Assembly: GCA_027623355.1 (NCBI GenBank)
Contig: JAQBWB010000001.1
Coordinates: forward strand, 1 to 36,984
Length of the DNA stretch: 36,984 bases
Direction of reading: 5' to 3'
Origin: Nanobdellota archaeon
Lineage (GTDB): Archaea > Nanobdellota > Nanobdellia > Woesearchaeales > JACPBV01
Below the pieces are notes generated by a model. That model searched no databases. It was not told where the DNA came from and was given only the letters and a program-made list of their open reading frames with translations. The translations under genes and the position numbers were made by a program. Positions 1 to 32,029 of the stretch are shown piece after piece. How positions within the stretch are numbered: position 1 is the stretch's first letter; every line of letters starts with the position of its first letter.

Positions 1-67
1 GACCCCTCGCAACGCACCTGCTTGTGAAAGGTGAAAGAATTTCGACCTTAGGATGCTATGCACATAC
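1..67 (+). mobile_element. MITE-like element, copy A (3' 67 nt only, truncated by window start)
   Basis: Matches the last 67 nt of the full copies at 4159-4327, 18854-19021 and 31862-32029. Ends with the right terminal inverted repeat atgctatgcacatac. Carries the cttgtgaaagg variant shared with copy B. Confidence 0.85.
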
Positions 68-4158: not shown

Positions 4159-4327
4159 GTATGTGTATAGCATAGTCACTAGCGTTCGTAGGCTGCTAAA
4201 GCAACCATCTTCGAAATTCCTGAGATTATTCCTTGAAGGTGCTGCGTCCCCGGGGGGGTCGACCCCTCGCAACGCACCTGCTTGTGAAAGGTGAAAGAAT
4301 TTCTACCTTAGGATGCTATGCACATAC
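4159..4327 (+). mobile_element. MITE-like element, copy B (full length, 169 nt)
   Basis: TIRs gtatgtgtatagcat / atgctatgcacatac, with one G-T position. Flanked by a perfect 8-bp direct duplication gtattttt (4151-4158 and 4328-4335). Lies between the convergent 3' ends of ORF 2870 and proS. Confidence 0.9.
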
Positions 4328-6199: not shown

Positions 6200-7078
6200 A
6201 TGAATATACGAAACGTACAGAAAACAGGGAACATGCATTATGTGTACCTGCCGACTAGTTGGTGCAAGCAATATAACATTAGTTCTTCATCGAAGGTAAG
6301 TGTTACTGCTAATAACGACGGTAGTTTAACGGTTTCTCCTGATACGCGTGAGGCTGAACAGCACCATTTGACCTTAGATGTTCCTGAGGCATCGTCTTCT
6401 ATGTTGATTAAATTGATTATGGCGTGTTACGTTAATCCTACGCAGTCTTTTACATTAAAACTTGCGAAGCAGACTAATCTTGCTGCGTTATTGGATAAAA
6501 GAAGATCTATCTCTGCTCTTGAATTTGTTGAATTAGAGGGGGACACTATTACTCACGAATCTAGCATCTCTATTAAGGACCCTAAAACTATTTTGAAGAT
6601 GATGGTGAAGAAGATTCACAGTTTGTCACATGTTATGCTTGAAAATTATGATCGCAATCTTATTAACCGTTATGAGGAGGAGATTGACAAAAGTAAATTG
6701 TTGATTACGAAATCGGTTGTTAGTTCGCTTGCTGATAACGCAGTTATGGTGATAAAGCCACTCGATTTACATTATATCGCTTTACTTGCTAGTCATCTGG
6801 AGCGGATGGTTGATTCGTTGATAATGGTTGACAGCAAGGAGACTGCATTCTTGAAGCAGGTCTCTGCACTATTAGGTTCACTTAAGGAATTAACCGATCG
6901 GCTTTCTAGTCTTGATTTAACTCGTGTTATTGATTTTGAGGCTGAGGTTAGTGCATTGAAGACTCCTGACGTTAATAACATCAAGACTTATGGAATGCGA
7001 CGTATAAGAATTAATCTCAATAAGGTCACTGAGGTGCTCTTTGATTGGGTCATTAGCAACAAAATTATTAAGAAGTAA
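6200..7078 (+). CDS. AbrB/SpoVT-domain plus PhoU-like repeat regulator (paralog 1)
   Basis: The N-terminus VQKTGNMHYVYLPTSW aligns with GFGKNSLAITLPKSW of the paralog at 29996-31033, and a helical PhoU-like region follows. ATG 6200 was chosen over 6134 by alignment with the paralog. Confidence 0.65.
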   Translation: MNIRNVQKTGNMHYVYLPTSWCKQYNISSSSKVSVTANNDGSLTVSPDTREAEQHHLTLDVPEASSSMLIKLIMACYVNPTQSFTLKLAKQTNLAALLDKRRSISALEFVELEGDTITHESSISIKDPKTILKMMVKKIHSLSHVMLENYDRNLINRYEEEIDKSKLLITKSVVSSLADNAVMVIKPLDLHYIALLASHLERMVDSLIMVDSKETAFLKQVSALLGSLKELTDRLSSLDLTRVIDFEAEVSALKTPDVNNIKTYGMRRIRINLNKVTEVLFDWVISNKIIKK

Positions 7079-7146: not shown

Positions 7147-7455
7147 ATGTTGGGAATCATACAAGAATTAAAGGAAACTGAGAAGAAAGCAGCTTTAAAT
7201 ATCGAGAGTGCTGGTAAAAAAGCAGTCGAGGATTTGGCTAAAGCTGAACAGGCTGGAAAGGATGCAGGTGATGCTTTGCAGGTCAAGATGGACAAGGAGA
7301 AACTTGATAAGTTAGCAATAGCTCAAAAAGAGGTTGATGCTGAGGTTGTAAAGATAGAGTCCCAGGGTAAAAAGGAGCTTGAGTCTTTGAAAAAGGCAGC
7401 AACTAGTAAGAAGACGAAAATTGTTGAGGCTGTTACGAAAGCACTATTAGAATGA
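7147..7455 (+). CDS. atpH: A-type ATP synthase subunit H
   Basis: 102-aa Lys/Glu/Ala-rich coiled-coil protein at the first position of an HIKECFABD operon. GGAGG lies 8 nt upstream. Confidence 0.75.
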   Translation: MLGIIQELKETEKKAALNIESAGKKAVEDLAKAEQAGKDAGDALQVKMDKEKLDKLAIAQKEVDAEVVKIESQGKKELESLKKAATSKKTKIVEAVTKALLE

Positions 7456-9398
7456 GTAAACCACTTGAGATGAGCAAGGTTACGCTTTTTGCTCTGCAGA
7501 AAGAGAGGAGTTCTTTATTAAGCGAGATTCAGTCCTTAGGAGTATTGCAACCGGTTGAGATTAAGCGCGATGCAGTCGAGGAATTAGAGAAACCTAAACA
7601 GATTACCTCGATAAAGGAGGTTGCCGATACATTGATTGGTGTCTCTCGAATGGTTCGTATTTTGAAGTTGGCTCCTAGAAAAACTGACATGGTTCAAAAT
7701 GTTTTGGGCTTAGAATTATTAGACAAAAGAAAGGTTGAGAGGAAAAATGATGCTGAAGTTATCAAAGGTGCTCAAACATTTTTAGAGGCCCATGAAACTT
7801 CATTAATTACGCTTGAGATCGAATATACTACTCTTGTTGAGGAGGAAGATGAGTTGAATACTCATAAACAAGTTATTGAACAGCTTTCTGCTTTAGGCGT
7901 TCCGTTATCTGAACTTGCGGATACGGACAAACTGGGCATTCTTATTGCTCGAGTTCCCGTTGAACAGGCTGCAGTTCTTAGGACTGCCTTGGAATCGAAA
8001 AAGACGGTTGCATTTGAGATGAATGCACTTTCTAAAAAGGAATATATAGTTACCCTTATTTCTTTACAGCGATTATTACTTGATTCCACTACTTTATTGA
8101 AACAGCAGGGGGCTTCAATTCTTAGCTTACCTACATGGGCTTTAAAGGAGCATCCCGGTAGGTACATTAAGTCTCAATTGACCGAGGTTAGCGATAAGAA
8201 AAAGGCAGTTATTGAAAGAATCGCTAAACATGCTAAGTCGCTATTCGAGGATGCCGTTATTTTTAGAGAGGAGTTGGAGATTGTTAAGAATAGATTGGAA
8301 ACGGTGCATAAGATGCTTGATTCTTCTAGCTTTTTTGTGATGCAGGGATGGATTGCTACTAAAGACGCAAATCATTTTGAGGAGAAGATAACGAAAAAGA
8401 TTGATGCGGTTAGTGTGCTTGTGGAGGAACCTTCTAAGGATGATGTTGTGCCAGTAGCATTACAAAACAGGAAATCTTTGAAACCGTTTGAGATGCTTAC
8501 AGAACTTTATGCATTGCCAAAATATGGTGATTTAGATCCTACTTTTATTGTTGGTCCTTTATTCTTGATTTTTGCAGCATTCATGTTGACGGATGCAGTG
8601 TATGGATTAGGACTCGTATTACTTGGAGCCATTATTCTAAAGAAATTTGCAAAATATGATGAAGGATTGAAGCAGATTGGTATTATTATTGCTGGAATGG
8701 GTAGTTTGACTGTTTTATTCGGGGTATTAACCGGATCGTACTTTGGTGATTTACCTAAGTATTTCTTTGGTGTATCGTCTGAACAGCTTGCATTTTGGAA
8801 AGATCCTCTTGCTGATCCGTTGTATTTTCTGATTTTATCTATTTCGGTTGCGATCCTTTACTTGAACATTGGTTTCGTTCTTGGTATGATGGAGGATTTG
8901 CGCAAGAAGGATTACAAAACGATGGTTAAGGACAGAATATTATGGTTTTTGTTGCAAATTGGTATTGCTTTGCTTGTTTTGAAGTTTAATCCTCCTCTTT
9001 TATTTGGTGTGGGTTTAGCTACCTTGATTATTGCTGCTGCGGTGATTGGAATAGTTGTGATGCATGGTCCGCTTGGTTTACTAGGAATCTCTGGATTAAT
9101 GGGCGATATGATATCGTTTTCTAGATTATTTGCGTTGTCGTTATCAACAGCAGGCATTGCACTTGCGGTTAACTTGCTTGCTAACTTAGTAAGTGAGGTT
9201 CCTTATGTGGGTTTATTACTAGCCGTACTTATCTTTTTGATTGGTCACGCATTTGGTTTTGTTATGAACTCTATTGGAAGTTTTGTACACGCGTTACGAT
9301 TGCAATTTGTTGAATTTTTCGGTAGATTTTATGAGGGTGGCGGAGATAAATTTTCGCCACTAAAAGAGGAACGCTTCTATTCGGAGGTCGAGGAATGA
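7452..9398 (+). CDS. atpI: A-type ATP synthase subunit I (stator a-subunit homolog)
   Basis: 648 aa with a soluble N-terminal half and a polytopic C-terminal half that includes the conserved Arg region (FSRLFALSLS). ATGA overlap with atpH. Confidence 0.9.
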   Translation: MSKPLEMSKVTLFALQKERSSLLSEIQSLGVLQPVEIKRDAVEELEKPKQITSIKEVADTLIGVSRMVRILKLAPRKTDMVQNVLGLELLDKRKVERKNDAEVIKGAQTFLEAHETSLITLEIEYTTLVEEEDELNTHKQVIEQLSALGVPLSELADTDKLGILIARVPVEQAAVLRTALESKKTVAFEMNALSKKEYIVTLISLQRLLLDSTTLLKQQGASILSLPTWALKEHPGRYIKSQLTEVSDKKKAVIERIAKHAKSLFEDAVIFREELEIVKNRLETVHKMLDSSSFFVMQGWIATKDANHFEEKITKKIDAVSVLVEEPSKDDVVPVALQNRKSLKPFEMLTELYALPKYGDLDPTFIVGPLFLIFAAFMLTDAVYGLGLVLLGAIILKKFAKYDEGLKQIGIIIAGMGSLTVLFGVLTGSYFGDLPKYFFGVSSEQLAFWKDPLADPLYFLILSISVAILYLNIGFVLGMMEDLRKKDYKTMVKDRILWFLLQIGIALLVLKFNPPLLFGVGLATLIIAAAVIGIVVMHGPLGLLGISGLMGDMISFSRLFALSLSTAGIALAVNLLANLVSEVPYVGLLLAVLIFLIGHAFGFVMNSIGSFVHALRLQFVEFFGRFYEGGGDKFSPLKEERFYSEVEE

Positions 9399-12300
9399 TT
9401 TTCGGTAGTGGACTTGTTGTTAGTGAAAGTATCGTTCAATCGATCTTAAGTCCGGTTTTGGATATTTCTACTACTGTTTCTACTGGAGGGGTTGCTAATG
9501 CAACTGCTACTGTACTTACTAATGCTTCGGCAGTACTTGTTGAACATAGCTCTACGTTTTTGGGTCTTGATTTTTCTGGTATTGATGGAAAATCACTTGC
9601 GATTATTGGTGCTGCTATTGCTGTTAGTGCCGCTGGTATTGCATCTGCGGTTGGAGCTGGGATTGTGGGTGCTACTGGAGCTAAGGAGGCCGCTGAGGAT
9701 CCTAAGCGCTTTTCTACTGCTTTATTGTTTCAGGCATTGCCTCAGACACAAGGTATTTATGGATTTTTGATTGCTATTCTTATTTTATTGGGTGCTGGAT
9801 TGATTGGTGCTGCTAAGGAGATTACGATTGCACAGGGACTTGGTTCGGTTGGAGCTGGATTGGCTGTTGGAATCGCTTCTGTTTCTGCTATTGGGCAGGG
9901 TCTCGCTGCATCAGCTGGTATCGGTGCTACCTCTCGTGATAAAAAGATGTTTGGTAAATCTATTCTGTTTTCAGTCTTGCCGGAGACACAGGCATTGTAT
10001 GGATTTTTGATTGCTATTTTGATACTCGTTGGCTTTGGTATGTTTGGTTCGGCTCCCGTTGACATTTCTATTGGTGCTGGTTGGGCTGCTATAGGTGCAG
10101 GTCTTGCTATTGGGATTGCAGGTATTTCTGCTATTGGGCAGGGTACTGCTGCTGCATCTGCTATTGGTGCTGTTTTAGAAAAATCAAAATCTTTTGGAAA
10201 GGCTATTATTTTTGCAGTATTACCTGAGACACAGGCATTGTATGGATTCATTATCGCTATTCTTATTTTAATTGGATTTGGTATTCTTGGTGCTGGAACA
10301 ACAACTGTTTCGTTTGGAGTTGCCTTATTTGCTATTGGTGCAGGTTTATCGGTTGGACTAGGTGCTGTTTCTGCTATTGGGCAGGGTATTGCTGCTAGTG
10401 CTGGTATTGAAGCTGTTGCTAAGAGTGATAAGTCGTTTGGAAAGGCTATTTTGTTTTCAGTCTTACCGGAAACACAGGCATTGTATGGTTTTTTGATTGC
10501 TATTTTGTTGTTAGTTGGCGCTGGCGTATTAGGTGCCGCTAAGGCAGGTATTACTACAGCTATGGGGGTTGTTGCTATTGGTGCTGGCCTTGCTGCAGGA
10601 GTTGCTGGTATTTCTGCTATTGGGCAGGGAATTGCTGCTGCATCTGGAATTTCTGTTGTTACTGCGAAACCTAAATTGTTTGGAAAAGCTATACTTTTTT
10701 CAGTCTTGCCGGAGACACAGGCATTGTATGGATTTTTGATTGCTATTCTTTTACTTGTTGGAGGCGGTATTTTGGGTGCTGCAAAAGCAGGATTATCTAT
10801 TCACGTTGGTTTAATTGCTATTGGTGCTGGTTTGGCAACTGGACTTGCTGCTGTATCTGCATTAGGTCAGGGGATTGCTGCTAGCGCGGGTATCGAAGCT
10901 GTTGGTCGAGATGAGAAGTCTTTTGGTAAGTCGATTTTATTTTCGGTTCTTCCTGAGACACAGGCATTGTATGGATTTTTGATTGCTATTTTATTATTAG
11001 TTGGAGGCGGTTTATTAGGGGCTGTTAAGACAGGATTGAACATGTCTGTTGGCTTGATTGCTATTGGTTCTGGATTGGCAACTGGACTTGCTGCTGTATC
11101 TGCATTAGGTCAGGGGATTGCTGCTGCATCTGGATTGCGTGAAACTGCTAAGGATCCTAAGGCTTTTGGTAAGTCGATTTTGTTTTCAGTCTTGCCGGAG
11201 ACACAGGCATTGTATGGATTTTTGATTGCTATTTTATTATTAGTTGGTGGAGGTATCCTTGGAGGTAACTCTTCAAGTGGTTTAACCTCTGGAGTTGGTC
11301 TTGTTGGAATTGGAGCAGGTATTGCTGTTGGTTTAGCTGCAGTTTCAGCTATCGGACAGGGTATTGCTGCTGCAAGTGGTGTTAGTGCTACTGCTAAAGA
11401 TGGTAAGATGTTTGGAAAATCTATTTTGTTTTCAGTCTTGCCTGAAACTCAGGCATTGTATGGATTTTTGATTGCTGTTTTATTTATGATTGGAGGAGGA
11501 TTATTTGGTGCTGTAGAGGTTGGCATTACCACTCCGGTTGGACTTATTGTTATTGGAGCTAGCTTAGCTGTTGGGATTGCAGGTATTTCTGCTATTGGAC
11601 AGGGTATTGCTGCGGCTTCTGGAATTGATGCTGTTGCTAAAAATGAGAAGTCGTTTGGAAAGGCTATTTTGTTTTCAGTCTTGCCGGAAACACAGGCATT
11701 GTATGGATTCTTAGTTGCTATTCTTTTATTAGTTGGAGGAGGATTATTAGGAGCAGTTAAACAGGGCATTAGCTTATCTGTTGGATTGGTTGCGATTGGG
11801 GCTGGTTTATCGGCTGGACTTGCTGCTGTATCTGCATTAGGACAGGGTTTCGCTGCTTCGGCTGGATTAGCAGCTACTGCACGTAATCCTAAATCTTTTG
11901 GTAAGTCGATACTCTTTTCAGTTCTTCCTGAAACTCAGGCTTTGTATGGATTTTTGATTGCTATTTTATTATTAGTTGGTGGCGGTATCTTAGGTGCAAC
12001 AAGCACTGGATTGTCTGTAGGTATTGGTTTAGTTGCGGTTGGAGCTGGATTAGCAGTTGGATTGAGTGCGTTCTCTGCTGTTGGGCAGGGGATTGTTGCT
12101 AGTACTGCTGCGGATGTTGTTAGTAACAACGAGAAGTCTTTTGGTAAGTCGATTCTATTTTCAGTACTGCCTGAAACACAGGCATTGTATGGATTTTTGA
12201 TTGCTATTTTGTTGATTGCATCAGGTGGATTGATTGGTGCTGCAGCTGGCGAGATTCCGATGTCTATTGGTTTAGTTGCGGTTGGAGCAGGACTTTCTGT

Positions 12301-12724
12301 TGGAATTGCCGGCTTATCGGCTGTTGGACAGGGAATTGCTGCTGCTTCTGGTGTCGGATCGATTGCTGAAAAAGAGAATGTCTTTGGTAAATCTATTTTG
12401 TTTTCAGTCTTGCCGGAGACACAGGCATTGTATGGAATTATTATTGCGGTGTTATTATTAACTGGAGTCGGTTTACTAGGTACTTTGAAGACCGGCATTA
12501 CACTAGTACAGGGATTAGGGGGAGTTGGTGTAGGACTTACCATGGGACTTGCAGCAGTTAGTGCTGTGGGTCAGGGAATAGTGTCTGCTTCATCGATTGG
12601 TGGGGTGGTTAGAGACAATAAGAGTACGGGGAAGAGCTTGGTATTAAGCGTTATTCCCGAGACGTATGCAATATTTGGATTATTGATAGCAATACTTTTG
12701 CTTATTGGATTACAACTGATATAG
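9395..12724 (+). CDS. atpK: A-type ATP synthase proteolipid subunit K, 13 fused hairpins (26 predicted TM helices)
   Basis: The motif GQG...FGK(S/A)ILFSVLPETQALYGF repeats at an 81-aa period. Helix-2 carboxylates are E197, 278, 359, 440, 521, 602, 684, 765, 846, 927, 1008 and 1089. Hairpin 1 has Q117 instead. ATGA overlap with atpI. Confidence 0.9.
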   Translation: MIFGSGLVVSESIVQSILSPVLDISTTVSTGGVANATATVLTNASAVLVEHSSTFLGLDFSGIDGKSLAIIGAAIAVSAAGIASAVGAGIVGATGAKEAAEDPKRFSTALLFQALPQTQGIYGFLIAILILLGAGLIGAAKEITIAQGLGSVGAGLAVGIASVSAIGQGLAASAGIGATSRDKKMFGKSILFSVLPETQALYGFLIAILILVGFGMFGSAPVDISIGAGWAAIGAGLAIGIAGISAIGQGTAAASAIGAVLEKSKSFGKAIIFAVLPETQALYGFIIAILILIGFGILGAGTTTVSFGVALFAIGAGLSVGLGAVSAIGQGIAASAGIEAVAKSDKSFGKAILFSVLPETQALYGFLIAILLLVGAGVLGAAKAGITTAMGVVAIGAGLAAGVAGISAIGQGIAAASGISVVTAKPKLFGKAILFSVLPETQALYGFLIAILLLVGGGILGAAKAGLSIHVGLIAIGAGLATGLAAVSALGQGIAASAGIEAVGRDEKSFGKSILFSVLPETQALYGFLIAILLLVGGGLLGAVKTGLNMSVGLIAIGSGLATGLAAVSALGQGIAAASGLRETAKDPKAFGKSILFSVLPETQALYGFLIAILLLVGGGILGGNSSSGLTSGVGLVGIGAGIAVGLAAVSAIGQGIAAASGVSATAKDGKMFGKSILFSVLPETQALYGFLIAVLFMIGGGLFGAVEVGITTPVGLIVIGASLAVGIAGISAIGQGIAAASGIDAVAKNEKSFGKAILFSVLPETQALYGFLVAILLLVGGGLLGAVKQGISLSVGLVAIGAGLSAGLAAVSALGQGFAASAGLAATARNPKSFGKSILFSVLPETQALYGFLIAILLLVGGGILGATSTGLSVGIGLVAVGAGLAVGLSAFSAVGQGIVASTAADVVSNNEKSFGKSILFSVLPETQALYGFLIAILLIASGGLIGAAAGEIPMSIGLVAVGAGLSVGIAGLSAVGQGIAAASGVGSIAEKENVFGKSILFSVLPETQALYGIIIAVLLLTGVGLLGTLKTGITLVQGLGGVGVGLTMGLAAVSAVGQGIVSASSIGGVVRDNKSTGKSLVLSVIPETYAIFGLLIAILLLIGLQLI
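9587..12721 (+). repeat. 13 in-frame tandem units of about 243 nt, one proteolipid hairpin each
   Basis: Regular 80-82 codon spacing of the PET motif. Several units share identical stretches of 40 nt or more, such as ttttcagtcttgccggagacacaggcattgtatggatttttgattgctatt. Confidence 0.9.
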
Positions 12725-13288
12725 GTGATGACAATGAACGGCGCTGAAAACATAAAAAAAGAAATGCTTGAAGAAGCACAACAGGAAGTTGAAAAGATAC
12801 AAAAAGAGGTAGCCGAGAAAATCGATGTCTTGAAGAAAGAACATGGATCTATTAGAGATGCCTATGAAACGCAACGCAAGCATGAGATTGCTCGAGCTGC
12901 TGCATTATTAACCGATAAAACCTTGGCTCGAACTAGGTTACAGGTTAAGAGAAATTACCTGATTGAACGAGAAAAGGTTGTTGAAAGCATTGTTAAGAGT
13001 GCTAGTAAGGTAAGCCATAGCGATAAGGTGTATCAGAACTACCTCAAGGCGCTTGTTAATGAACATGTTGGAAGTTTGAAGGGTAAGATTACTATTCATT
13101 GTAATAGTAAGGATGTTTCATATGTTAGTGGTCTTGTTGACGGGATTGCGGTTGAAGAAGCGGACATTGATGGAGGTATCATTGTTGAAAATGATGCTGG
13201 TAAAAAGATTAATGAATCTTTCTTGGAGTCAATTGAGAGAAGAATGGATATGGTTCGAGAGGTTGTTGTTAAGCACTTAGGAAAATGA
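12725..13288 (+). CDS. atpE: A-type ATP synthase subunit E
   Basis: Charged coiled-coil N-terminus and globular C-terminus, about 185 aa, in the operon position after K. The start is ambiguous: GTG 12725, ATG 12728 or ATG 12734. Confidence 0.85.
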   Translation: MMTMNGAENIKKEMLEEAQQEVEKIQKEVAEKIDVLKKEHGSIRDAYETQRKHEIARAAALLTDKTLARTRLQVKRNYLIEREKVVESIVKSASKVSHSDKVYQNYLKALVNEHVGSLKGKITIHCNSKDVSYVSGLVDGIAVEEADIDGGIIVENDAGKKINESFLESIERRMDMVREVVVKHLGK

Positions 13289-14319
13289 TTGATGTTACCG
13301 TACCTTTAGTTGTTGGCGGCGCTGCGGTAGCTGGGCTTGTAGTCATCGCGCCGATAACGAAGTATGCATTGGATATGTATCCTTACTTGTATGCTAACAC
13401 GCGTTGTGCTAGTCGTGCTGGGTTGTTGTTAACGAAGAAGCACTACGATGATTTATTGGGTGCTGGTTCGATTGAGGAAGTCTATGGTGGACTGGAAGAT
13501 AGTTCATATGCATCAATAGTCGAACATCATAAAGACTTTTTTTCATTTTCACGTGGCTTGGAGCAGGATTATGTTGAAACCTTATCCTGGATTCAGGAGA
13601 TTAGTCCTAACACGGTTAAGGGTGTTGTATCGGCATTGCAGAAACGCTCTGAAATTAATACGTTAAAGGAAATTATGGGTAATTTGAAGAATAAGAAGGA
13701 GTTGCCTTCTTTGGTTGGTATTGCTGATGCTACACTTCGGGTAAGGATTGAGGGAATCAAGGATATGCAGGGCTTTCAGGTAGCTTTAGAAGGAAGTGTG
13801 TATGGTGAGTTGCTTGCGAGTATTGATTTAGAGAGAATGGCCGAGATTAATACGTCATTAGATCGTTTCTATCTAGAGCAGTTGCAGGATGCTATCTCTA
13901 GTGTAAAAGATAGTGATGTCAAAAGTGCGTTTCTTACCTATGTTACCGTTCTTATTGATTTATTTAATGTTCGCCTTGCGTTAAGGAGTAGTGGGCAGGT
14001 GAGCTATTTGGAAGGTGGGGTGCTCGATTCTGAGGCTTTGGCTTCTGCCGCAGATAATACTCAACTTGAATCGGTGTTTAGTGCTAGTGTGTATGGTGAA
14101 GGGATGAGTGGGTTTTCTCTTACAAAGCTAGAGCAGGCTTTTATTTCTTACCTTCAAAAACAGGCGGAGATTATTGGAGTTAAATATAATCTGAAGGCTG
14201 GGATGTTGTTACGTTATTTAATTCACAAAGAAATTGAGATTAGAAATGTGAATGCGTTGGTTAAATTAAAATCTGAGGGATTTGATGCTGAAGAAATCAG
14301 ATCGTATGTGGTGGTTTAG
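13285..14319 (+). CDS. atpC: A-type ATP synthase subunit C (V-type d homolog)
   Basis: 344-aa helical protein in the operon position between E and F. ATGA overlap with atpE. Confidence 0.85.
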   Translation: MIDVTVPLVVGGAAVAGLVVIAPITKYALDMYPYLYANTRCASRAGLLLTKKHYDDLLGAGSIEEVYGGLEDSSYASIVEHHKDFFSFSRGLEQDYVETLSWIQEISPNTVKGVVSALQKRSEINTLKEIMGNLKNKKELPSLVGIADATLRVRIEGIKDMQGFQVALEGSVYGELLASIDLERMAEINTSLDRFYLEQLQDAISSVKDSDVKSAFLTYVTVLIDLFNVRLALRSSGQVSYLEGGVLDSEALASAADNTQLESVFSASVYGEGMSGFSLTKLEQAFISYLQKQAEIIGVKYNLKAGMLLRYLIHKEIEIRNVNALVKLKSEGFDAEEIRSYVVV

Positions 14320-14450
14320 ATGGAAATATCACTCAATGGGCATCTTCGAAATCCAGATTGTCTATTTGAAGGCTCTGTGGCCCGGATGGCACAACCCCTA
14401 CGACGAGCTGGCAGTCATTCATTGAAGGATTTCGACTTTAGGATGCTTGA
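14320..14450 (+). repeat. MITE-related structured intercistronic element, copy F (no TIRs)
   Basis: Shares catcttcgaaat..., cccgga.gg....acccc and atttcgac.ttaggatgct blocks with the MITE core. Helices 14346-14354/14427-14435, 14371-14375/14405-14409 and 14376-14379/14399-14402 are maintained. It also forms a 51-codon ORF, 14320-14475. Confidence 0.7.
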
Positions 14451-14465
14451 TTGGGAGATGATATC

Positions 14466-14759
14466 ATGGAAATAGGAATACTCGCGGATCAGGATACCTT
14501 GATGGGCTTTAGGGTAGCGGGAGTTACGCGAAGTGTGTTGTTTGATCTTGAAACGTTGAAGGAGGATTTGAAACAGCTGGATGATGTTGCTATTTTATTG
14601 GTTACTGAAAAAATAGGAATAGAAATTAGAAAATTAGATGTTACGATTTCACCTGTATTAGTTGGTGTACCTGATAAAGGTGGAAGTACAGGGAATGCGT
14701 TATTAGAGATTGCTAAACTTTACGAAGAGGCAATCGGTGTAAAACTCAAGGAAAAATAG
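14466..14759 (+). CDS. atpF: A-type ATP synthase subunit F
   Basis: MEIGILADQDTLMGFRVAGV is a typical F-subunit N-terminus. ATG 14466 is preferred over TTG 14451. Confidence 0.85.
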   Translation: MEIGILADQDTLMGFRVAGVTRSVLFDLETLKEDLKQLDDVAILLVTEKIGIEIRKLDVTISPVLVGVPDKGGSTGNALLEIAKLYEEAIGVKLKEK

Positions 14760-14771
14760 GAGGGATATGAT

Positions 14772-16532
14772 ATGGTAGAAGGAATAATTATTAAAATTTC
14801 AGGACCGGTTGTAGTCGCTAAAGACATGGCAGGTGTAAAGATGTATGAGGTGGTTAGAGTCGGTAACGAAGGCCTTATTGGCGAAGTTATTGAGCTCTTT
14901 AAAGATAGGGCTACGATCCAGGTCTATGAGGAGACTTCAGGTATGCAGCCAGGCGAGAAAGTTGTTTCGCAGGGTCAGTCGTTGTCTGTTGAATTAGGAC
15001 CGGGTATCATGGGTAATATCTATGATGGTATTATGAGACCGTTGAAACAGATTCAGAAAAAATCTGGTGCGTTCATGGCTCGTGGAATTGATGCTGATGC
15101 AATTGACCACAAGAAGAAGTGGAAGTTTGTGCCTTCGGCTAAAAAGGGTGACCAAGTTATAGGCGGACAGATTATTGGTGAGGTTGCAGAGACTTCAGCT
15201 GTTGTTCAGAAAATTATGATTCCCCCTCGAGTTTCGGGTGAAATTAAAAAAATTGTTAAGACTGGCGAGTATACAGTTACTGAGAGTATAGCTACTGTCG
15301 CTACACAGGATGGAGATGTTGAGGTACAGCTGTCACAGAAGTGGCCTGTTCGAAACCCACGTCCCGTTAAAAGTAAGGAAGAACCTACGATTCCTTTGAT
15401 TTCTGGTTTGCGTATCTTGGATACGTTTAATCCAGTTGCAAAGGGAGGTACTGCTGCTACGCCTGGTGCTTTTGGTACCGGTAAAACAGTAACTCAGCAG
15501 AGTCTTGCTAAATGGTGTAATGCAGATATTATTGTCTACATTGGCTGTGGTGAAAGAGGAAATGAGATGACGGATGTTCTTAAGACCTTTCCTGAATTGG
15601 TAGATCCACGATCTGGAAAGCCGTTACTTGAAAGAACGGTTATTATTGCTAATACCTCGAACATGCCCGTTGCCGCTAGAGAGGCTTCGGTCTACACCGG
15701 TATTACGATTGCTGAATATTTTCGAGATATGGGCTATGATGTTGCATTGATGGCTGATTCGACTTCACGATGGGCTGAAGCTATGCGTGAAATTTCATCT
15801 CGTCTAGAAGAGATGCCAGGTGAGGAGGGATACCCTGCTTATCTGTCAACTCGATTAAGTCAGTTCTATGAACGAGCTGGTCGTGTAACGCCGTTAGCTG
15901 GTGGTAATGGTTCAGTTACTATTATTGGGGCTATTAGTCCTCCCGGTGGAGACTTTTCGGAACCGGTGACACAGAATACGTTGCGTGTTAACAAAACGTT
16001 CTGGGCTTTGGATAAGAGTCTTGCTAGTAAAAGACACTTTCCAGCTATTAATTGGTTGACCTCGTATTCGTTGTATTTAGATACGGTAACGGACTGGTTT
16101 AATGAACATTCTGGTAGCGATTGGAGAGATCTTCGAGACAAGGCAATGGGATTATTGCAGAAAGAGGACCAGTTGCAGGAGATTGTGCAGTTGGTTGGTC
16201 CGGATGCACTTCCTGATAACGAGCGTGTTATTCTTGAGGTTACTAAAATGTTGCGAGAGGATTTCTTGCAGCAGAATGCGTTTCTCGAAGAAGATGCATA
16301 CTGTCCAATTGAGAAGCAGTACTTAATGCTGAAATTCATTCTTGAGTTTTATGATAGGGCTCAGGAAGCTTTGAAAAAGGGTGTTAAGACTGAGGCGATT
16401 GCTGGACTTGCTATTAAAGAAAGGATTGCTCGAATGAAAGAGGCTAAGAATGAGACATTCGGCGATCATTACAAGGAGTTGCAAGCTGAAATGAGCTCGC
16501 AGTTTTCAAAAGTTGGAGGGGATGCACAATGA
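14772..16532 (+). CDS. atpA: A-type ATP synthase catalytic subunit A
   Basis: P-loop [10 protein letters not shown], the non-homologous insertion region typical of A/V-type A subunits, and LAEYFRDMG. 586 aa, contiguous, no intein. Confidence 0.97.
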
Positions 16533-17911
16533 GTAAAGGCGTAGAGTATACTAGCATTCGTGAAATTGCAGGACCTCTTTTAATTGTAGAAGATGTAGAC
16601 GGTATTGCGTTTGGTGAACTTGTTGAAATCAAGTTAGATAATGGTGACAAACGAACTGGCCAGGTTTTAGAGGCTCGAGATGATTTAGCTGTTATTCAGG
16701 TGTTTGAAGGAACTCGTGATTTGGCAACTAAGGGTATCTCGGTGCGATTTACTGGTGAAACTATGAAGGTTGGCTTATCGAAGGATATCATTGGACGTAT
16801 CTTCAATGGAGTTGGAAAACCTATCGATGGTGGACCGGCAATTATTCCTGAGAAGCGAGTAGATGTTAATGGACTTCCCATTAATCCAACGGCGCGAGAA
16901 TTTCCGGACGAATTTATTCAAACAGGTATTTCAACAATTGATGTGATGAATACTTTGGTTAGAGGACAGAAACTGCCTATCTTTTCTGAAGCAGGATTGC
17001 CGCACAACGAGCTAGCCGCTCAGATTGCGCGTCAGGCTAAGGTGAAGGGAGATGGTGGAAACTTTGCTGTTGTATTTGCAGCTATGGGAATTACGTTCGA
17101 GGAAAGTCAGTTTTTCATGAAGGACTTTGAAAGAACTGGAGCCATTGAAAATATGGTTGCTTTCATTAACTTAGCAGATGATCCAGCAATTGAGCGTATC
17201 ATTACGCCTAGAATTGCTTTATCGGCTGCTGAGTATCTTGCGTTTGAACACGATATGCATATTCTGGTTATCTTAACGGATATGACCAATTATTGTGAAG
17301 CATTGCGAGAGATTGCAGCAGCTCGAAACGAGATTCCTGGAAGACGAGGATATCCGGGATACATGTATACAGATCTTGCTATGAATTACGAACGTGCAGG
17401 TAAAATCAAGGGTAAAAAAGGATCTGTAACTCAGATTCCTATCTTGACGATGCCGCAGGGAGATATTTCTCACCCGATTCCGGACTTGACGGGATATATT
17501 ACTGAAGGGCAGATTGTTCTCTCCAAGGAACTTCATACCAAAGGTATCTATCCTCCGATTAATCCGTTGCCCTCTTTATCACGTTTGATGAATGAGGGTA
17601 TTGGTAAAGGTAAGACACGAGATGACCACGCAGGTGTATCGAACCAGCTGTATACGGTGTATGCAGAGGGAAGCGAACTGCGTGATTTGGTTGCTGTTGT
17701 TGGTGAGGAAGCGTTATCGGTTCGAGATAAGCAGTTCTTGGATGGTGCTGAGGCGTTTGAGAGGACGTTTATTACGCAGTCTAAGGACGATAATAGGGAC
17801 ATTGCTGCTTCGCTTACAATTGGTTGGGATATCTTTAAGTTAATCCCGAAAACCGAGCTTAAGAAGCTCAAGCAGGAGCATATCGATAAACATTTGGGAA
17901 AAACTGAATGA
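16529..17911 (+). CDS. atpB: A-type ATP synthase subunit B
   Basis: 460 aa with motifs such as [15 protein letters not shown] and ITEGQI that are conserved in A/V-type B subunits. ATGA overlap with atpA. Confidence 0.97.
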
Positions 17912-18030
17912 ATATGAACGAGCGTCTTCGAAATCTGGAGGGTTTTCTTCAAAGCCCTGTGACCCGGATGGTGCAACCCCCACGACGGGCTAGCATACAT
18001 TCTTTGCAGGATTTCGAACTCAGGACGCTT
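17912..18030 (+). repeat. MITE-related structured intercistronic element, copy G (no TIRs)
   Basis: cgtcttcgaaatc...agccc tgtg acccggatggtgcaacccc cacg ac gggct...ggatttcgaactcaggacgct. The helix layout matches copy F and the MITE core. It also forms a 45-codon ORF, 17908-18045, whose ATG overlaps the atpB stop. Confidence 0.7.
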
Positions 18031-18051
18031 GAGGTGAAGAGGTAAATAATA

Positions 18052-18675
18052 ATGGCATCAAAAATACATGCAGCAACTCGAATGGAGTTGCTTCGATTAA
18101 AGAAGAAGGCTAAGCTAGCTGCGAAAGGATTTAAATTGCTTAAGCAGAAGCGAGATGCACTTATTTCTGAGTTCTTTTCTTATATCGATAAGTTGAAGGT
18201 TATTCGTACTGAGATGGAGGATAAGTTGGCGGTTGCCTACAAATCTTTGATCTTGGCTCAGGCATTGTCTGGTGGTCCTGAAATTGAACGTGCTGCATCT
18301 GCTTCTAGTGCTGCGTACTCAATTGAATCTTCAACTAACAATATTATGGGTGTTGAGGTGCCTGCTTTCAGGGCAACTGAACTAACAACTGAGGCAGGAT
18401 ACAGTAAATTGTCGCCTTCTTTGGAATTAGATAGTGCTCGCACTAATTTTAAGGAGTCTCTTGCTATTATTATTAAGTTGGCTGGAGCTGAGGCTACGGT
18501 TCGCAAATTAGCAGCTGAGATTAAGAAAACTAAAAGAAAGGTCAATGCTTTGGAGCGTATTCTTATTCCTCGGATTAATAATGATATCACTTACATCAAG
18601 GTTCGTCTTGAGGAGTTGGAGCGAGAGAACTTTGCCAGATTGAAGGTCGTTAAAAAACGTATTGAAGTGCAATGA
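18052..18675 (+). CDS. atpD: A-type ATP synthase subunit D (central stalk)
   Basis: 207-aa coiled-coil protein with TRMELLRLKKK at the N-terminus and LEELERENFARLK at the C-terminus, both typical of the D subunit. GAGGTGAAGAGG lies upstream. Confidence 0.9.
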   Translation: MASKIHAATRMELLRLKKKAKLAAKGFKLLKQKRDALISEFFSYIDKLKVIRTEMEDKLAVAYKSLILAQALSGGPEIERAASASSAAYSIESSTNNIMGVEVPAFRATELTTEAGYSKLSPSLELDSARTNFKESLAIIIKLAGAEATVRKLAAEIKKTKRKVNALERILIPRINNDITYIKVRLEELERENFARLKVVKKRIEVQ

Positions 18676-18830
18676 TGGCAAAACCTATCCCCATTTGGCT
18701 ACGCTTTCAGAAAGATCCTGTTAAACGAGAGAGGATGTTTAAGGTTCTGTTTTTCTTGATGGTTGGAGTTAATGCGCTGATTGTTATTGGATTCTTGGTG
18801 TTTGTGTTTTTGTTGGTTAAGAGGATATAA
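18675..18830 (+). CDS. Small single-pass membrane protein (51 aa), start overlapping the atpD stop
   Basis: The ATG overlaps the atpD stop (TGATG). Sequence MAKPIPIWLRFQKDPVKRERMFKVLFFLMVGVNALIVIGFLVFVFLLVKRI has a basic N-terminus and one clear TM segment. It falls below the ORF-track size cutoff. Confidence 0.45.
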   Translation: MAKPIPIWLRFQKDPVKRERMFKVLFFLMVGVNALIVIGFLVFVFLLVKRI

Positions 18831-18853: not shown

Positions 18854-19021
18854 GTATGTGCATAGCATAGTCACTAGCGTTCGTAGGCTGCTAAAGCAAC
18901 CATCTTCGAAATTCTCGAAACTATCCATCGAAGGTGCTGCGTCCCCGGAGGGGGCTACCCCTCGCAACGCACCTGCTTTTGAAGGTGAAAGAATTTCGAC
19001 CTTAGGATGCTATGCACATAC
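18854..19021 (+). mobile_element. MITE-like element, copy C (full length, 168 nt)
   Basis: Perfect 15-bp TIRs gtatgtgcatagcat / atgctatgcacatac. Perfect 8-bp TSD aattaggc at 18846-18853 and 19022-19029. Confidence 0.9.
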
Positions 19022-23040: not shown

Positions 23041-26100
<3,060 letters not shown>

Positions 26101-31861: not shown

Positions 31862-32029
31862 GTATGTGCATAGCATAGTCACTAGCGTTCGTAGGCTGCT
31901 AAAGCAACCATCTTCGAAATTCTCGAAACTATCCATCGAAGGTGCTGTGTCTCCGGAGGGGGCGACCCCTCGCAACGCACCTGCTTCGGAAGGTGAAAGA
32001 ATTTCGACCTTAGGATGCTATGCACATAC
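31862..32029 (+). mobile_element. MITE-like element, copy D (full length, 168 nt)
   Basis: Perfect 15-bp TIRs. The flanking 8-mers cataaaaa (31854-31861) and tataaaaa (32030-32037) match at 7 of 8 positions. It belongs to the same subfamily as copy C. Confidence 0.9.

Follow-up and report, generated by a model that had tools for sequence, protein, structure and literature searches.

A MITE insertion between atpC and atpF in an archaeal ATP synthase operon and the reading frame that spans it

The segment that separates atpC from atpF in the archaeal ATP synthase operon described here is almost certainly a MITE insertion. The inserted element is complete and belongs to a divergent MITE subfamily, and a reading frame of 51 codons (ORF51) crosses it from the stop codon of one gene to the start of the next. 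The window – the whole stretch of DNA that was analysed – is a 36,984-nt contig of a MAG listed by NCBI as 'Nanoarchaeota archaeon', and the A-type ATP synthase operon that it carries was confirmed with Pfam. The host of the operon is a marine DPANN archaeon. The genes of the operon are:

7147-7455, atpH
7452-9398, atpI
9395-12724, atpK
12725-13288, atpE
13285..14319, + strand, atpC, A/V-type ATPase subunit C/d, 344 aa (from the ORF and PF01992; 100% match to a protein named V-type ATPase subunit)
14317-14319, + strand, TAG stop codon of atpC
14466..14759, + strand, atpF, 97 aa (PF01990)
14772-16532, atpA
16529-17911, atpB
18052-18675, atpD, with its ATG at 18052
18672-18830, small ORF 3' of atpD

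The insert at atpC/atpF and its empty site

Neighbouring genes in the operon overlap or are separated by gaps of 12 nt or less, except at atpC/atpF (146 nt) and atpB/atpD (140 nt). An earlier account made from the sequence alone, here called the sequence-only reading, gave atpC/atpF as the only exception and overlooked the 140-nt gap at atpB/atpD, which contains a second copy of the element and a bridging ORF of its own. It was right to place an insert after the atpC TAG, and one base late in putting the atpF ATG at 14467; the codon begins at 14466. The atpC/atpF segment has the following parts:

14310..14314, + strand, GGTGG, formerly the Shine-Dalgarno region of atpF (relatives have GGTGAT), recognized by comparison with the empty sites
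14320..14328, + strand, left copy of the direct repeat ATGGAAATA, a target-site duplication that gives ORF51 its ATG (ATGGA(A/G)ATA occurs once at the empty site of the relatives)
14320..14475, + strand, ORF51, 51 codons, annotated as hypothetical protein MDA1196346.1, beginning right after the atpC TAG
14329..14465, + strand, MITE body of subfamily B, 137 nt, a long hairpin, with ends uncertain by a few nt
14337-44 / 14442-49, helix P1
14346-54 / 14427-35, helix P2
14371-75 / 14405-09, helix P3
14376-79 / 14399-14402, helix P4
14380-82 / 14388-90, helix P5
14391-98, unpaired ACAACCCC
14403-04, AC bulge
14453..14462, + strand, GGGAGATGAT, a Shine-Dalgarno-like sequence that now serves atpF and is predicted to be largely paired in naked mRNA
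14466..14474, + strand, right copy of the direct repeat ATGGAAATA, forming codons 1-3 of atpF

The GGTGG at 14310..14314 is now 5 nt 5' of the ORF51 ATG. The atpF ATG is preceded by GGGAGATGATATC, with the Shine-Dalgarno-like GGAGATGAT 3 nt upstream of it.

Relatives were found through homologues of AtpC and AtpF, and their contigs were then compared at the junctions. Eleven relative contigs of two lineages (L063, L071-L078, L080 and L081) were available from Tara Oceans, JGI, ENA and Logan assemblies. All 11 have CGTATGTGGTGATATAATGGA(A/G)ATAGG at atpC/atpF, with no insert and an intact operon. At this empty site the atpC TAA overlaps the atpF ATG, and ATGGA(A/G)ATA is present once, as ATGGAAATA or, in the eight contigs L071-L078, as ATGGAGATA. 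Relatives lacking the insert with no effect on operon structure were what the sequence-only reading had itself named as evidence against its proposal. Identity to the window across the operon is 79-83% in L072. In a more distant Woesearchaeota relative (L064, L066; AtpC identity 45%) the gene order is unchanged and atpC and atpF are 1 nt apart.

The target-site duplication, together with the documented empty site, identifies the atpC/atpF segment as a lineage-specific insertion, which postdates the split from the relatives that are ~80% identical. In a separate ENA assembly record (L079), 7 kb match the window at 100% identity and both inserts are present, which makes an assembly artefact unlikely.

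The perfect 9-bp direct repeat ATGGAAATA stands on either side of the insert, whose ends form an imperfect terminal inverted repeat (TIR), CTCAATGGGCATC / GATGCTTGATTGGG, extended by ATATCA/TGATAT and divergent from the TIR of subfamily A. The element had earlier been described as lacking TIRs, with an outer GCATC/GATGC helix in place of the TIR stem. That helix does exist; it is the inner part of the TIR of the canonical ~130-nt element and replaces nothing. A domesticated core without TIRs was thus rejected as a description of the insert, which is complete, with its own TIRs and 9-bp direct repeat. Small size, absence of a transposase gene, target-site duplication with an empty site, TIRs and dispersed copies were all found for it. 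No autonomous transposase partner was found in the window or in the fetched loci (with 8-kb flanks), where every TIR match is a short element.

The length of the duplication is ambiguous; judged from the flanks it would be 8-9 nt, perhaps as much as 16 nt. Of 16 positions in the right flank TGATATCATGGAAATA, 15 agree with the ancestral TGATATAATGGAAATA, and for this reason the duplication may be longer than the 8 bp usual in the family and extend to 16 nt. Between the canonical right end and the repeat are the 8 nt ATGATATC, which look like the ancestral Shine-Dalgarno/spacer sequence, yet also pair with the ATATCA of the left end.

The MITE family and its hairpin

The window has seven copies of the element, all on the + strand, five of them complete and two cut by the contig ends. 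Apart from the two at the operon junctions, they are:

1..67, + strand, right part only of a full copy, cut by the contig start
4159..4327, + strand, full-length copy with the 8-bp target-site duplication GTATTTTT
18854..19021, + strand, full-length copy just 3' of the operon, with TIRs GTATGTGCATAGCAT / ATGCTATGCACATAC and the 8-bp target-site duplication AATTAGGC (18846-53, 19022-29)
31862..32029, + strand, full-length copy with a ~8-bp target-site duplication, (C/T)ATAAAAA
36916..36984, + strand, left part only of a full copy, cut by the contig end

The full copies in the window are ~169 nt long, with GTATGTGCATAGCAT / ATGCTATGCACATAC as TIRs. A pattern for the element matched five times in the window and not at all in shuffled sequence. 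The covariance model gave one weak additional match (2787-2893), probably by chance, and found no further intact copies in the operon loci of the relatives.

Scanning of GTDB representative genomes with the pattern returned 62 loci. About 35 of these are in MAGs labelled as Woesearchaeota, Nanoarchaeota or 'Methanosarcinales'; the remainder are bacterial and match the ~23 chance matches estimated. The canonical element is ~130 nt, with TIRs of 15-16 bp (GTATKTGYWTAGCAC...) and perfect 8-bp target-site duplications in 10 of 13 tested copies. Relative to it, the full copies in the window contain a further segment of 33 nt that follows the left TIR. Recent activity of the family is suggested by one MAG in which at least 12 cores are identical.

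Both copies in the operon are of a less common subfamily, B, whose apex is GCCCGGATGGCAC.ACCCC. Elsewhere subfamily B is known from only three loci, which a single other MAG carries outside any atp operon; two of them are antisense to neighbouring genes. A scan of metagenomes for the subfamily returned only the same three. The three subfamily-B target sites that could be read all contain ATGRAA – AAATGAAA in L024, AATGAATA at atpB/atpD and ATGGAAATA at atpC/atpF – which, in three cases only, would help to explain insertion at start codons.

The family did not turn up in the other collections searched. Viral contigs gave 0 matches. Rfam at the gathering score recognized only one tRNA in the window. 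In E-value mode with a cutoff of 10, the atpC/atpF copy and a full window copy had weak sub-threshold matches (E 2.5-9.9), none corresponding to the element, and a canonical copy from another MAG had no match. No description of the MITE family was found in the literature searched.

Homology between the insert and the full copies at 4159-4327, 18854-19021 and 31862-32029 had been proposed from the sequence and is borne out by the family covariance model, with which the insert scores 99.3 bits. The helices earlier quoted as P2, P3 and P4, the AC bulge and the apex are likewise all present, and their differences from the full copies are compensatory. In the sense strand of the mRNA, 29 of 29 pairs form in the insert, six of them as G-U, with no mismatch. 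The fold energy of the insert is at z = −1.3 relative to shuffles.

The same helices are kept throughout the family. In an alignment of 31 distinct copies over 29 pairs, 95.7% of cells are paired and 16 of the 29 pairs have changed on both sides, values reached in 0 of 500 shuffles; slid controls of the alignment are 31-45% paired. The atpC/atpF and atpB/atpD copies differ at 11 paired positions and no pair is broken; three of the changes are double compensatory and five pass through G-U. A simulation of random substitution gave an expectation of 7.8 broken pairs, and none broken in 0 of 20,000 trials. The asymmetric apex (CCCC-loop-GGGG, then RCAACCCC) is unusually conserved across MAGs of 32 to 60% GC, and CCC(C)-loop-GGG(G) with the unpaired RCAACCCC is conserved even in the copies found by the covariance model.

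The helices are kept by compensatory change since the whole MITE family is selected for the hairpin. G-U pairs outnumber A-C oppositions across the family (39 vs 7), and by this measure folding is better in the strand as oriented. Between co-directional genes, nine copies are sense and 12 antisense; no bias towards the sense strand, tested as a sign of function at the mRNA level, was found among them. Because copies lie in either orientation, the structural constraint is a property of the mobile family. The compensatory changes predate the insertion and are therefore not evidence of a new role specific to the atp operon.

Structure prediction for naked mRNA has the foot of the hairpin pairing the ORF51 AUG with the region of the atpF AUG and covering most of the Shine-Dalgarno sequence. 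In the atpF AUG, the A and the U have predicted probabilities of 0.05-0.07 of being unpaired; over the atpF Shine-Dalgarno sequence the mean is 0.28. For atpD, the predicted accessibilities of the Shine-Dalgarno sequence and the AUG are 0.67 and 0.86.

Bridging reading frames at the two junctions

The ORF at 14320-14475, with its ATG directly 3' of the atpC TAG, had been described in the sequence-only reading as exactly slotted into the junction. The ORF exists and the fit is true; what had been missed is its mechanical cause, the duplicated atpF start. The ORF51 ATG is a duplicate of the atpF start codon, with the old atpF Shine-Dalgarno sequence still upstream, and this subfamily has no stops in the frame concerned (frame A), so the duplicated start opens 51 codons across the hairpin. 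The exact slotting thus follows from the target-site duplication of the atpF start and the open frame of the subfamily. At its 3' end ORF51 overlaps atpF by 10 nt, its TAG (14473-75) lying out of frame inside that gene.

Frame A is stop-free in five of the 31 distinct family copies and has stops in 26. It is open in three of the five known copies of subfamily B, one of which is antisense to its neighbouring genes. With only 5 of 31 copies stop-free, an open frame as a property of the whole family, as in the Rickettsia palindromic elements (RPE), was rejected.

By codon comparison the peptide is under no selection. ORF51 and its homologue at atpB/atpD, ORF45, can be compared over 40 aligned codons, of which 16 are identical, two differ synonymously and 22 non-synonymously; by codon position the differences number 13/8/10 and are not concentrated at the third. 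Neither ORF has a Pfam match, and among 15 billion proteins ORF51 clusters with no other. A conserved peptide was rejected on these grounds. Read-through of the atpC TAG, in frame, into ORF51 was rejected as well: TAG ends 6 of 30 genes in the window, the relatives have TAA, and ORF45 does not share the frame of atpB. The two 'hypothetical proteins', of 51 aa and 45 aa, are artefacts of annotating a repeat.

The second junction holds an older insertion of the same subfamily:

17912..18051, + strand, atpB/atpD spacer with the second copy of subfamily B (core 17919-18031; 96.1 bits)
17908..18045, + strand, ORF45, 45 codons, a bridging ORF whose ATG overlaps the atpB TGA (ATGA) and whose TAA is 6 nt before the atpD ATG

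In the relatives the atpB/atpD spacers are 46 nt (L071 group) and 41 nt (L080), and both are deletion remnants of the element. They keep its left arm (GAGCGTCTTCGAA...) and part of its right end, and in L080 18 of 18 nt match through TCTTCGAAATCTGGAGGG. Because the relatives keep remnants, the atpB/atpD insertion predates their split from the window. In the distant L064 the gap at atpB/atpD is 4 nt, with no copy. In the relatives the structured core of this copy was lost twice, by independent deletions, and the two deletions argue against a required RNA structure.

The remnants are also bridged. The L071 spacer has an ATG 2 nt past the atpB TGA and ends in TAATG, while the L080 spacer begins with ATGA and ends with a TAG followed at once by the ATG (TAG|ATG). 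An ORF therefore spans each of the four spacers (146, 140, 46 and 41 nt), reaching from the stop codon of the gene before it to the start codon of the gene after it. Shuffled controls were bridged in 10% and 16% of cases for the two long spacers and in ~65% for the short ones. The two long bridging ORFs are of the same subfamily and are not independent, which could raise the chance expectation to as much as ~1/9. In other genomes, most MITE copies that separate co-directional genes have no bridging ORF. The evidence for selection on bridging is suggestive, not strong.

A possible relay, the rival readings and known systems

The bridging ORFs could act as a relay for translation. Ribosomes ending atpC would reinitiate at the duplicated ATG, and their passage across the MITE hairpin would melt the pairing predicted to mask the Shine-Dalgarno sequence and AUG of atpF. 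Termination atop the atpF start could then be followed by reinitiation, aided by GGAGATGAT 3 nt upstream. One broken junction of 146 nt would in this way become two short ones, of 0 nt and −10 nt, and the older atpB/atpD copy and the deletion remnants in the relatives would be bridged in the same way. The probability of this role for the bridging ORFs is put a little short of even. The explanation as a whole – MITE insertion, origin of the ORF, and relay – is the best available, and is evenly balanced between right and wrong.

The geometry at these junctions is that of coupled gene pairs: 0 nt between atpC and ORF51, −10 nt between ORF51 and atpF, −4 nt (ATGA) between atpB and ORF45, and 6 nt from the ORF45 TAA to atpD. 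[quoted passage not shown] The 10-nt overlap exceeds the −1 and −4 overlaps that have been tested experimentally, which counts against a relay. So does the good Shine-Dalgarno sequence of atpF itself, which may make coupling needless.

A bolder form of the relay is speculative and on the whole unlikely. In it the spacer ORFs would be selected, sequence-indifferent 'translational relays'. Seeded at atpC/atpF by the duplicated start codon, such an ORF would persist after a MITE has broken up a stop/start overlap in an operon for a heteromeric complex, since it would restore two short junctions and unwind the hairpin, and its frame would be kept through later deletions, as in the three atpB/atpD spacer versions. 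Separately, the conserved apex of this DPANN-wide family would be a functional RNA or protein-binding module that travels with the element.

The rival that survives best is a neutral, tolerated MITE insertion, with the ORF a by-product and atpF translated from its own Shine-Dalgarno sequence. It is a real possibility, held tentatively. The relatives manage without the insert, the family inserts in either orientation, and no selection on the peptide was detected. An open bridge arises by chance at the rates given above for the long and short spacers, and frame A is open in three of the five subfamily-B copies, including the antisense one. The GGAGATGAT ahead of atpF is a strong Shine-Dalgarno sequence. 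However, all four versions of the spacer are bridged from stop to start despite two different internal deletions, and by prediction the Shine-Dalgarno sequence and AUG of atpF stay sequestered as long as the foot of the hairpin is closed. Since coupling in operons for heteromeric complexes collapses at gaps of 20 nt or more (PMC10666635), an unbridged 146 nt should also carry a cost.

It is improbable that the insert is a domesticated structured RNA that gates atpF translation, or a processing or stability site setting subunit stoichiometry. The sequence-only reading had proposed that folding gates atpF or marks a processing site, and the part of this that stands is the prediction, with the Shine-Dalgarno sequence and AUG mostly paired; comparison gives no support to the proposed role. 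The intact sense-strand structure with its six G-U pairs and no mismatch, and the family-wide ratio of 39 G-U to 7 A-C in favour of folding of the mRNA strand, fit such a role, as does the precedent of the bacterial MITEs Correia and ERIC, which are RNase III/E targets in mRNAs (review PMC10969869). The positional conservation expected of a cis-regulatory RNA of the atp operon was, however, not found: the atpC/atpF site is empty in 11 of 11 relative contigs, and at atpB/atpD the relatives have only remnants of the sister core, which was lost twice, and L064 has no copy. The compensatory changes belong to the whole family and predate the insertion, there is no orientation bias (9 sense vs 12 antisense), Rfam has no match, and the fold energy is at z = −1.3 only.

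That ORF51 encodes a functional micro-protein, such as a small accessory subunit of the ATP synthase, is hardly credible: it has a start codon, an inherited Shine-Dalgarno sequence, a tight fit and an NCBI annotation as a hypothetical protein, but the two synonymous against 22 non-synonymous differences, their 13/8/10 distribution, the lack of a Pfam match, its singleton status among 15 billion proteins, its absence from all relatives and the stops in 26 of 31 family copies stand against it.

The main value of the atpC/atpF insertion is as a natural test case for coupled archaeal operons that absorb transposon insertions. It is a clean and dated case, with a MITE in the most sensitive spot of such an operon – the point where two ATP synthase genes overlap in TAATG. 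The later fate of a copy, internal deletion with the frame kept open, can be read from the older sister insertion at atpB/atpD. If the relay is real, it explains how essential operons absorb MITE hits and offers a natural template for the distance rules of archaeal termination-reinitiation. In DPANN assemblies, contigs are also broken at copies of this MITE family.

Known archaeal MITEs include SM1-SM4 of Sulfolobus and Duanwu, Qixi and Chongyang of Haloquadratum, and a census lists a Woesearchaea genome with 105 MITEs/Mb (PMC11602168). They are of the same element class as the one described here, mostly intergenic and multicopy; the census that names the MITE-rich Woesearchaea genome (PMC11602168) has no description of the atpC/atpF MITE family.

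Several bacterial elements resemble the atpC/atpF MITE more closely in setting. Chunjie of Geobacter uraniireducens Rf4, as summarized in the articles that cite its description (Chen et al. 2008, Genetics 179:2291; PMC3184786, PMC10969869), was recently active; it has TIRs, its direct repeats are 9 bp long, and its RNA-level hairpin is very stable. On those summaries it shares with the atpC/atpF MITE the TIRs, a 9-bp direct repeat and the RNA-level hairpin, but it is bacterial, 178-235 bp long and A+T-rich, and it has no sequence relation to the archaeal element. ERIC/IRU (enterobacteria, Yersinia) and Correia (Neisseria) are, like the atpC/atpF MITE, imperfect palindromes of ~100-150 nt co-transcribed in operon mRNAs; they form long hairpins and can alter the expression of flanking genes (review PMC10969869). 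Unlike it, they are found in bacterial hosts, and the effects documented for them involve RNase III/E cleavage, promoters and IHF sites; in sequence they do not resemble it.

The RPE are mobile, palindromic, ~150 bp long and translated within an ORF, as is the atpC/atpF MITE. They differ in lying in frame inside genes and giving a conserved peptide (PMC10969869), whereas the atpC/atpF MITE has a separate intergenic ORF, a peptide that is not conserved, and stops in most copies.

Pairs of genes coupled by termination-reinitiation have a geometry like that at atpC/ORF51, ORF51/atpF and atpB/ORF45, and the operon encodes a heteromeric complex, as in the known cases (PMC6728339, PMC10666635). In known pairs both partners are real genes, while here the putative middle partner would be a transposon-derived spacer ORF indifferent to sequence. 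In its working, the atpC/atpF element is most like the bacterial MITEs embedded in operons, and in being translated it is partly like the RPE (PMC10969869, PMC3184786).

Sequence features of the MITE family

The apex of the MITE – CCC(C), a loop and GGG(G), followed by an unpaired RCAACCCC – is common to metagenome-assembled genomes (MAGs) of 32–60% GC, and its conservation holds also for the copies that were found independently of the search pattern. Insertions of 30–40 nt are accommodated within it (L018 6911–7053 and L052 1277–1426, two fetched loci with copies of the family).

Examples of the MITE apex
Window 14380–14398: apex of the atpC/atpF insert
L005 6221–6333, minus strand: copy in a fetched locus
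L068 828–944, minus strand: copy in a fetched locus
L047 5044–5156: copy in a fetched locus

The full MITE copies of the window (4159–4327, 18854–19021 and 31862–32029) carry an additional 33-nt segment, AGTCACTAGCGTTCGTAGGCTGCTAAAGCAAC, directly inside the left TIR; the canonical MITE of other MAGs, ca. 130 nt long, is without it. The AT-rich sequence between genes at 2787–2893 gives a weak covariance-model match to the MITE (18.9 bits, E 0.019), which is probably either chance or a heavily decayed copy.

In one MAG, binchicken_co48_399, a TATATAAA box lies ca. 16 nt upstream of several MITE copies and in the same orientation (in L019, L021, L031, L046 and L053, at ca. 24 to 17 nt before the left end). 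None was seen upstream of the copies from other MAGs. The box may reflect a promoter-proximal target preference.

The MITE repeat interrupts the assemblies of these genomes. Both ends of the window contig (1–67 and 36916–36984) fall within full MITE copies, and L079, a separate assembly record, also terminates (6947–7001) within a copy, the one at window 18854. The window has a tandem repeat as well, with ca. 6–7 units of the 15-nt TTGGTTCTTTAGATG at 25845–25964, inside a long minus-strand ORF (23041–26034).

Insert boundaries and remnants in the atp operon

At the atpC/atpF insert, 8 nt, ATGATATC (window 14457–14465), separate the canonical right end from the direct repeat. These resemble TGATATA, the ancestral SD/spacer as judged from the junction in relatives, and are also complementary to ATATCA at the left end of the insert, with which they pair. 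The duplication could thus be up to 16 nt long, or the element may have extra terminal bases.

The atpB/atpD spacer holds a second subfamily-B copy, of which only internally deleted remnants are left in two relatives. An ORF still bridges the atpB stop and the atpD start in all three versions.

Versions of the atpB/atpD spacer
Window 17908–18051: second subfamily-B MITE copy
L071 9447–9492: remnant of 46 nt
L080 8447–8487: remnant of 41 nt

The atpK rotor ring

The atpK gene (window 9395–12724) is built of 243-nt repeats, and its product of 1109 aa contains 13 ATP-synt_C domains (Pfam) – a complete 13-hairpin rotor ring within a single polypeptide. This architecture is kept in relatives, with 1109 aa in L071, 1106 aa in L080 and 1123 aa in the distant L064. 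PMC2359735, citing Lolkema & Boekema 2003, describes 13 hairpins in one polypeptide of 1021 aa in Methanopyrus kandleri. The lineage of the window would be a second archaeal lineage with a single-chain 13-hairpin ring.
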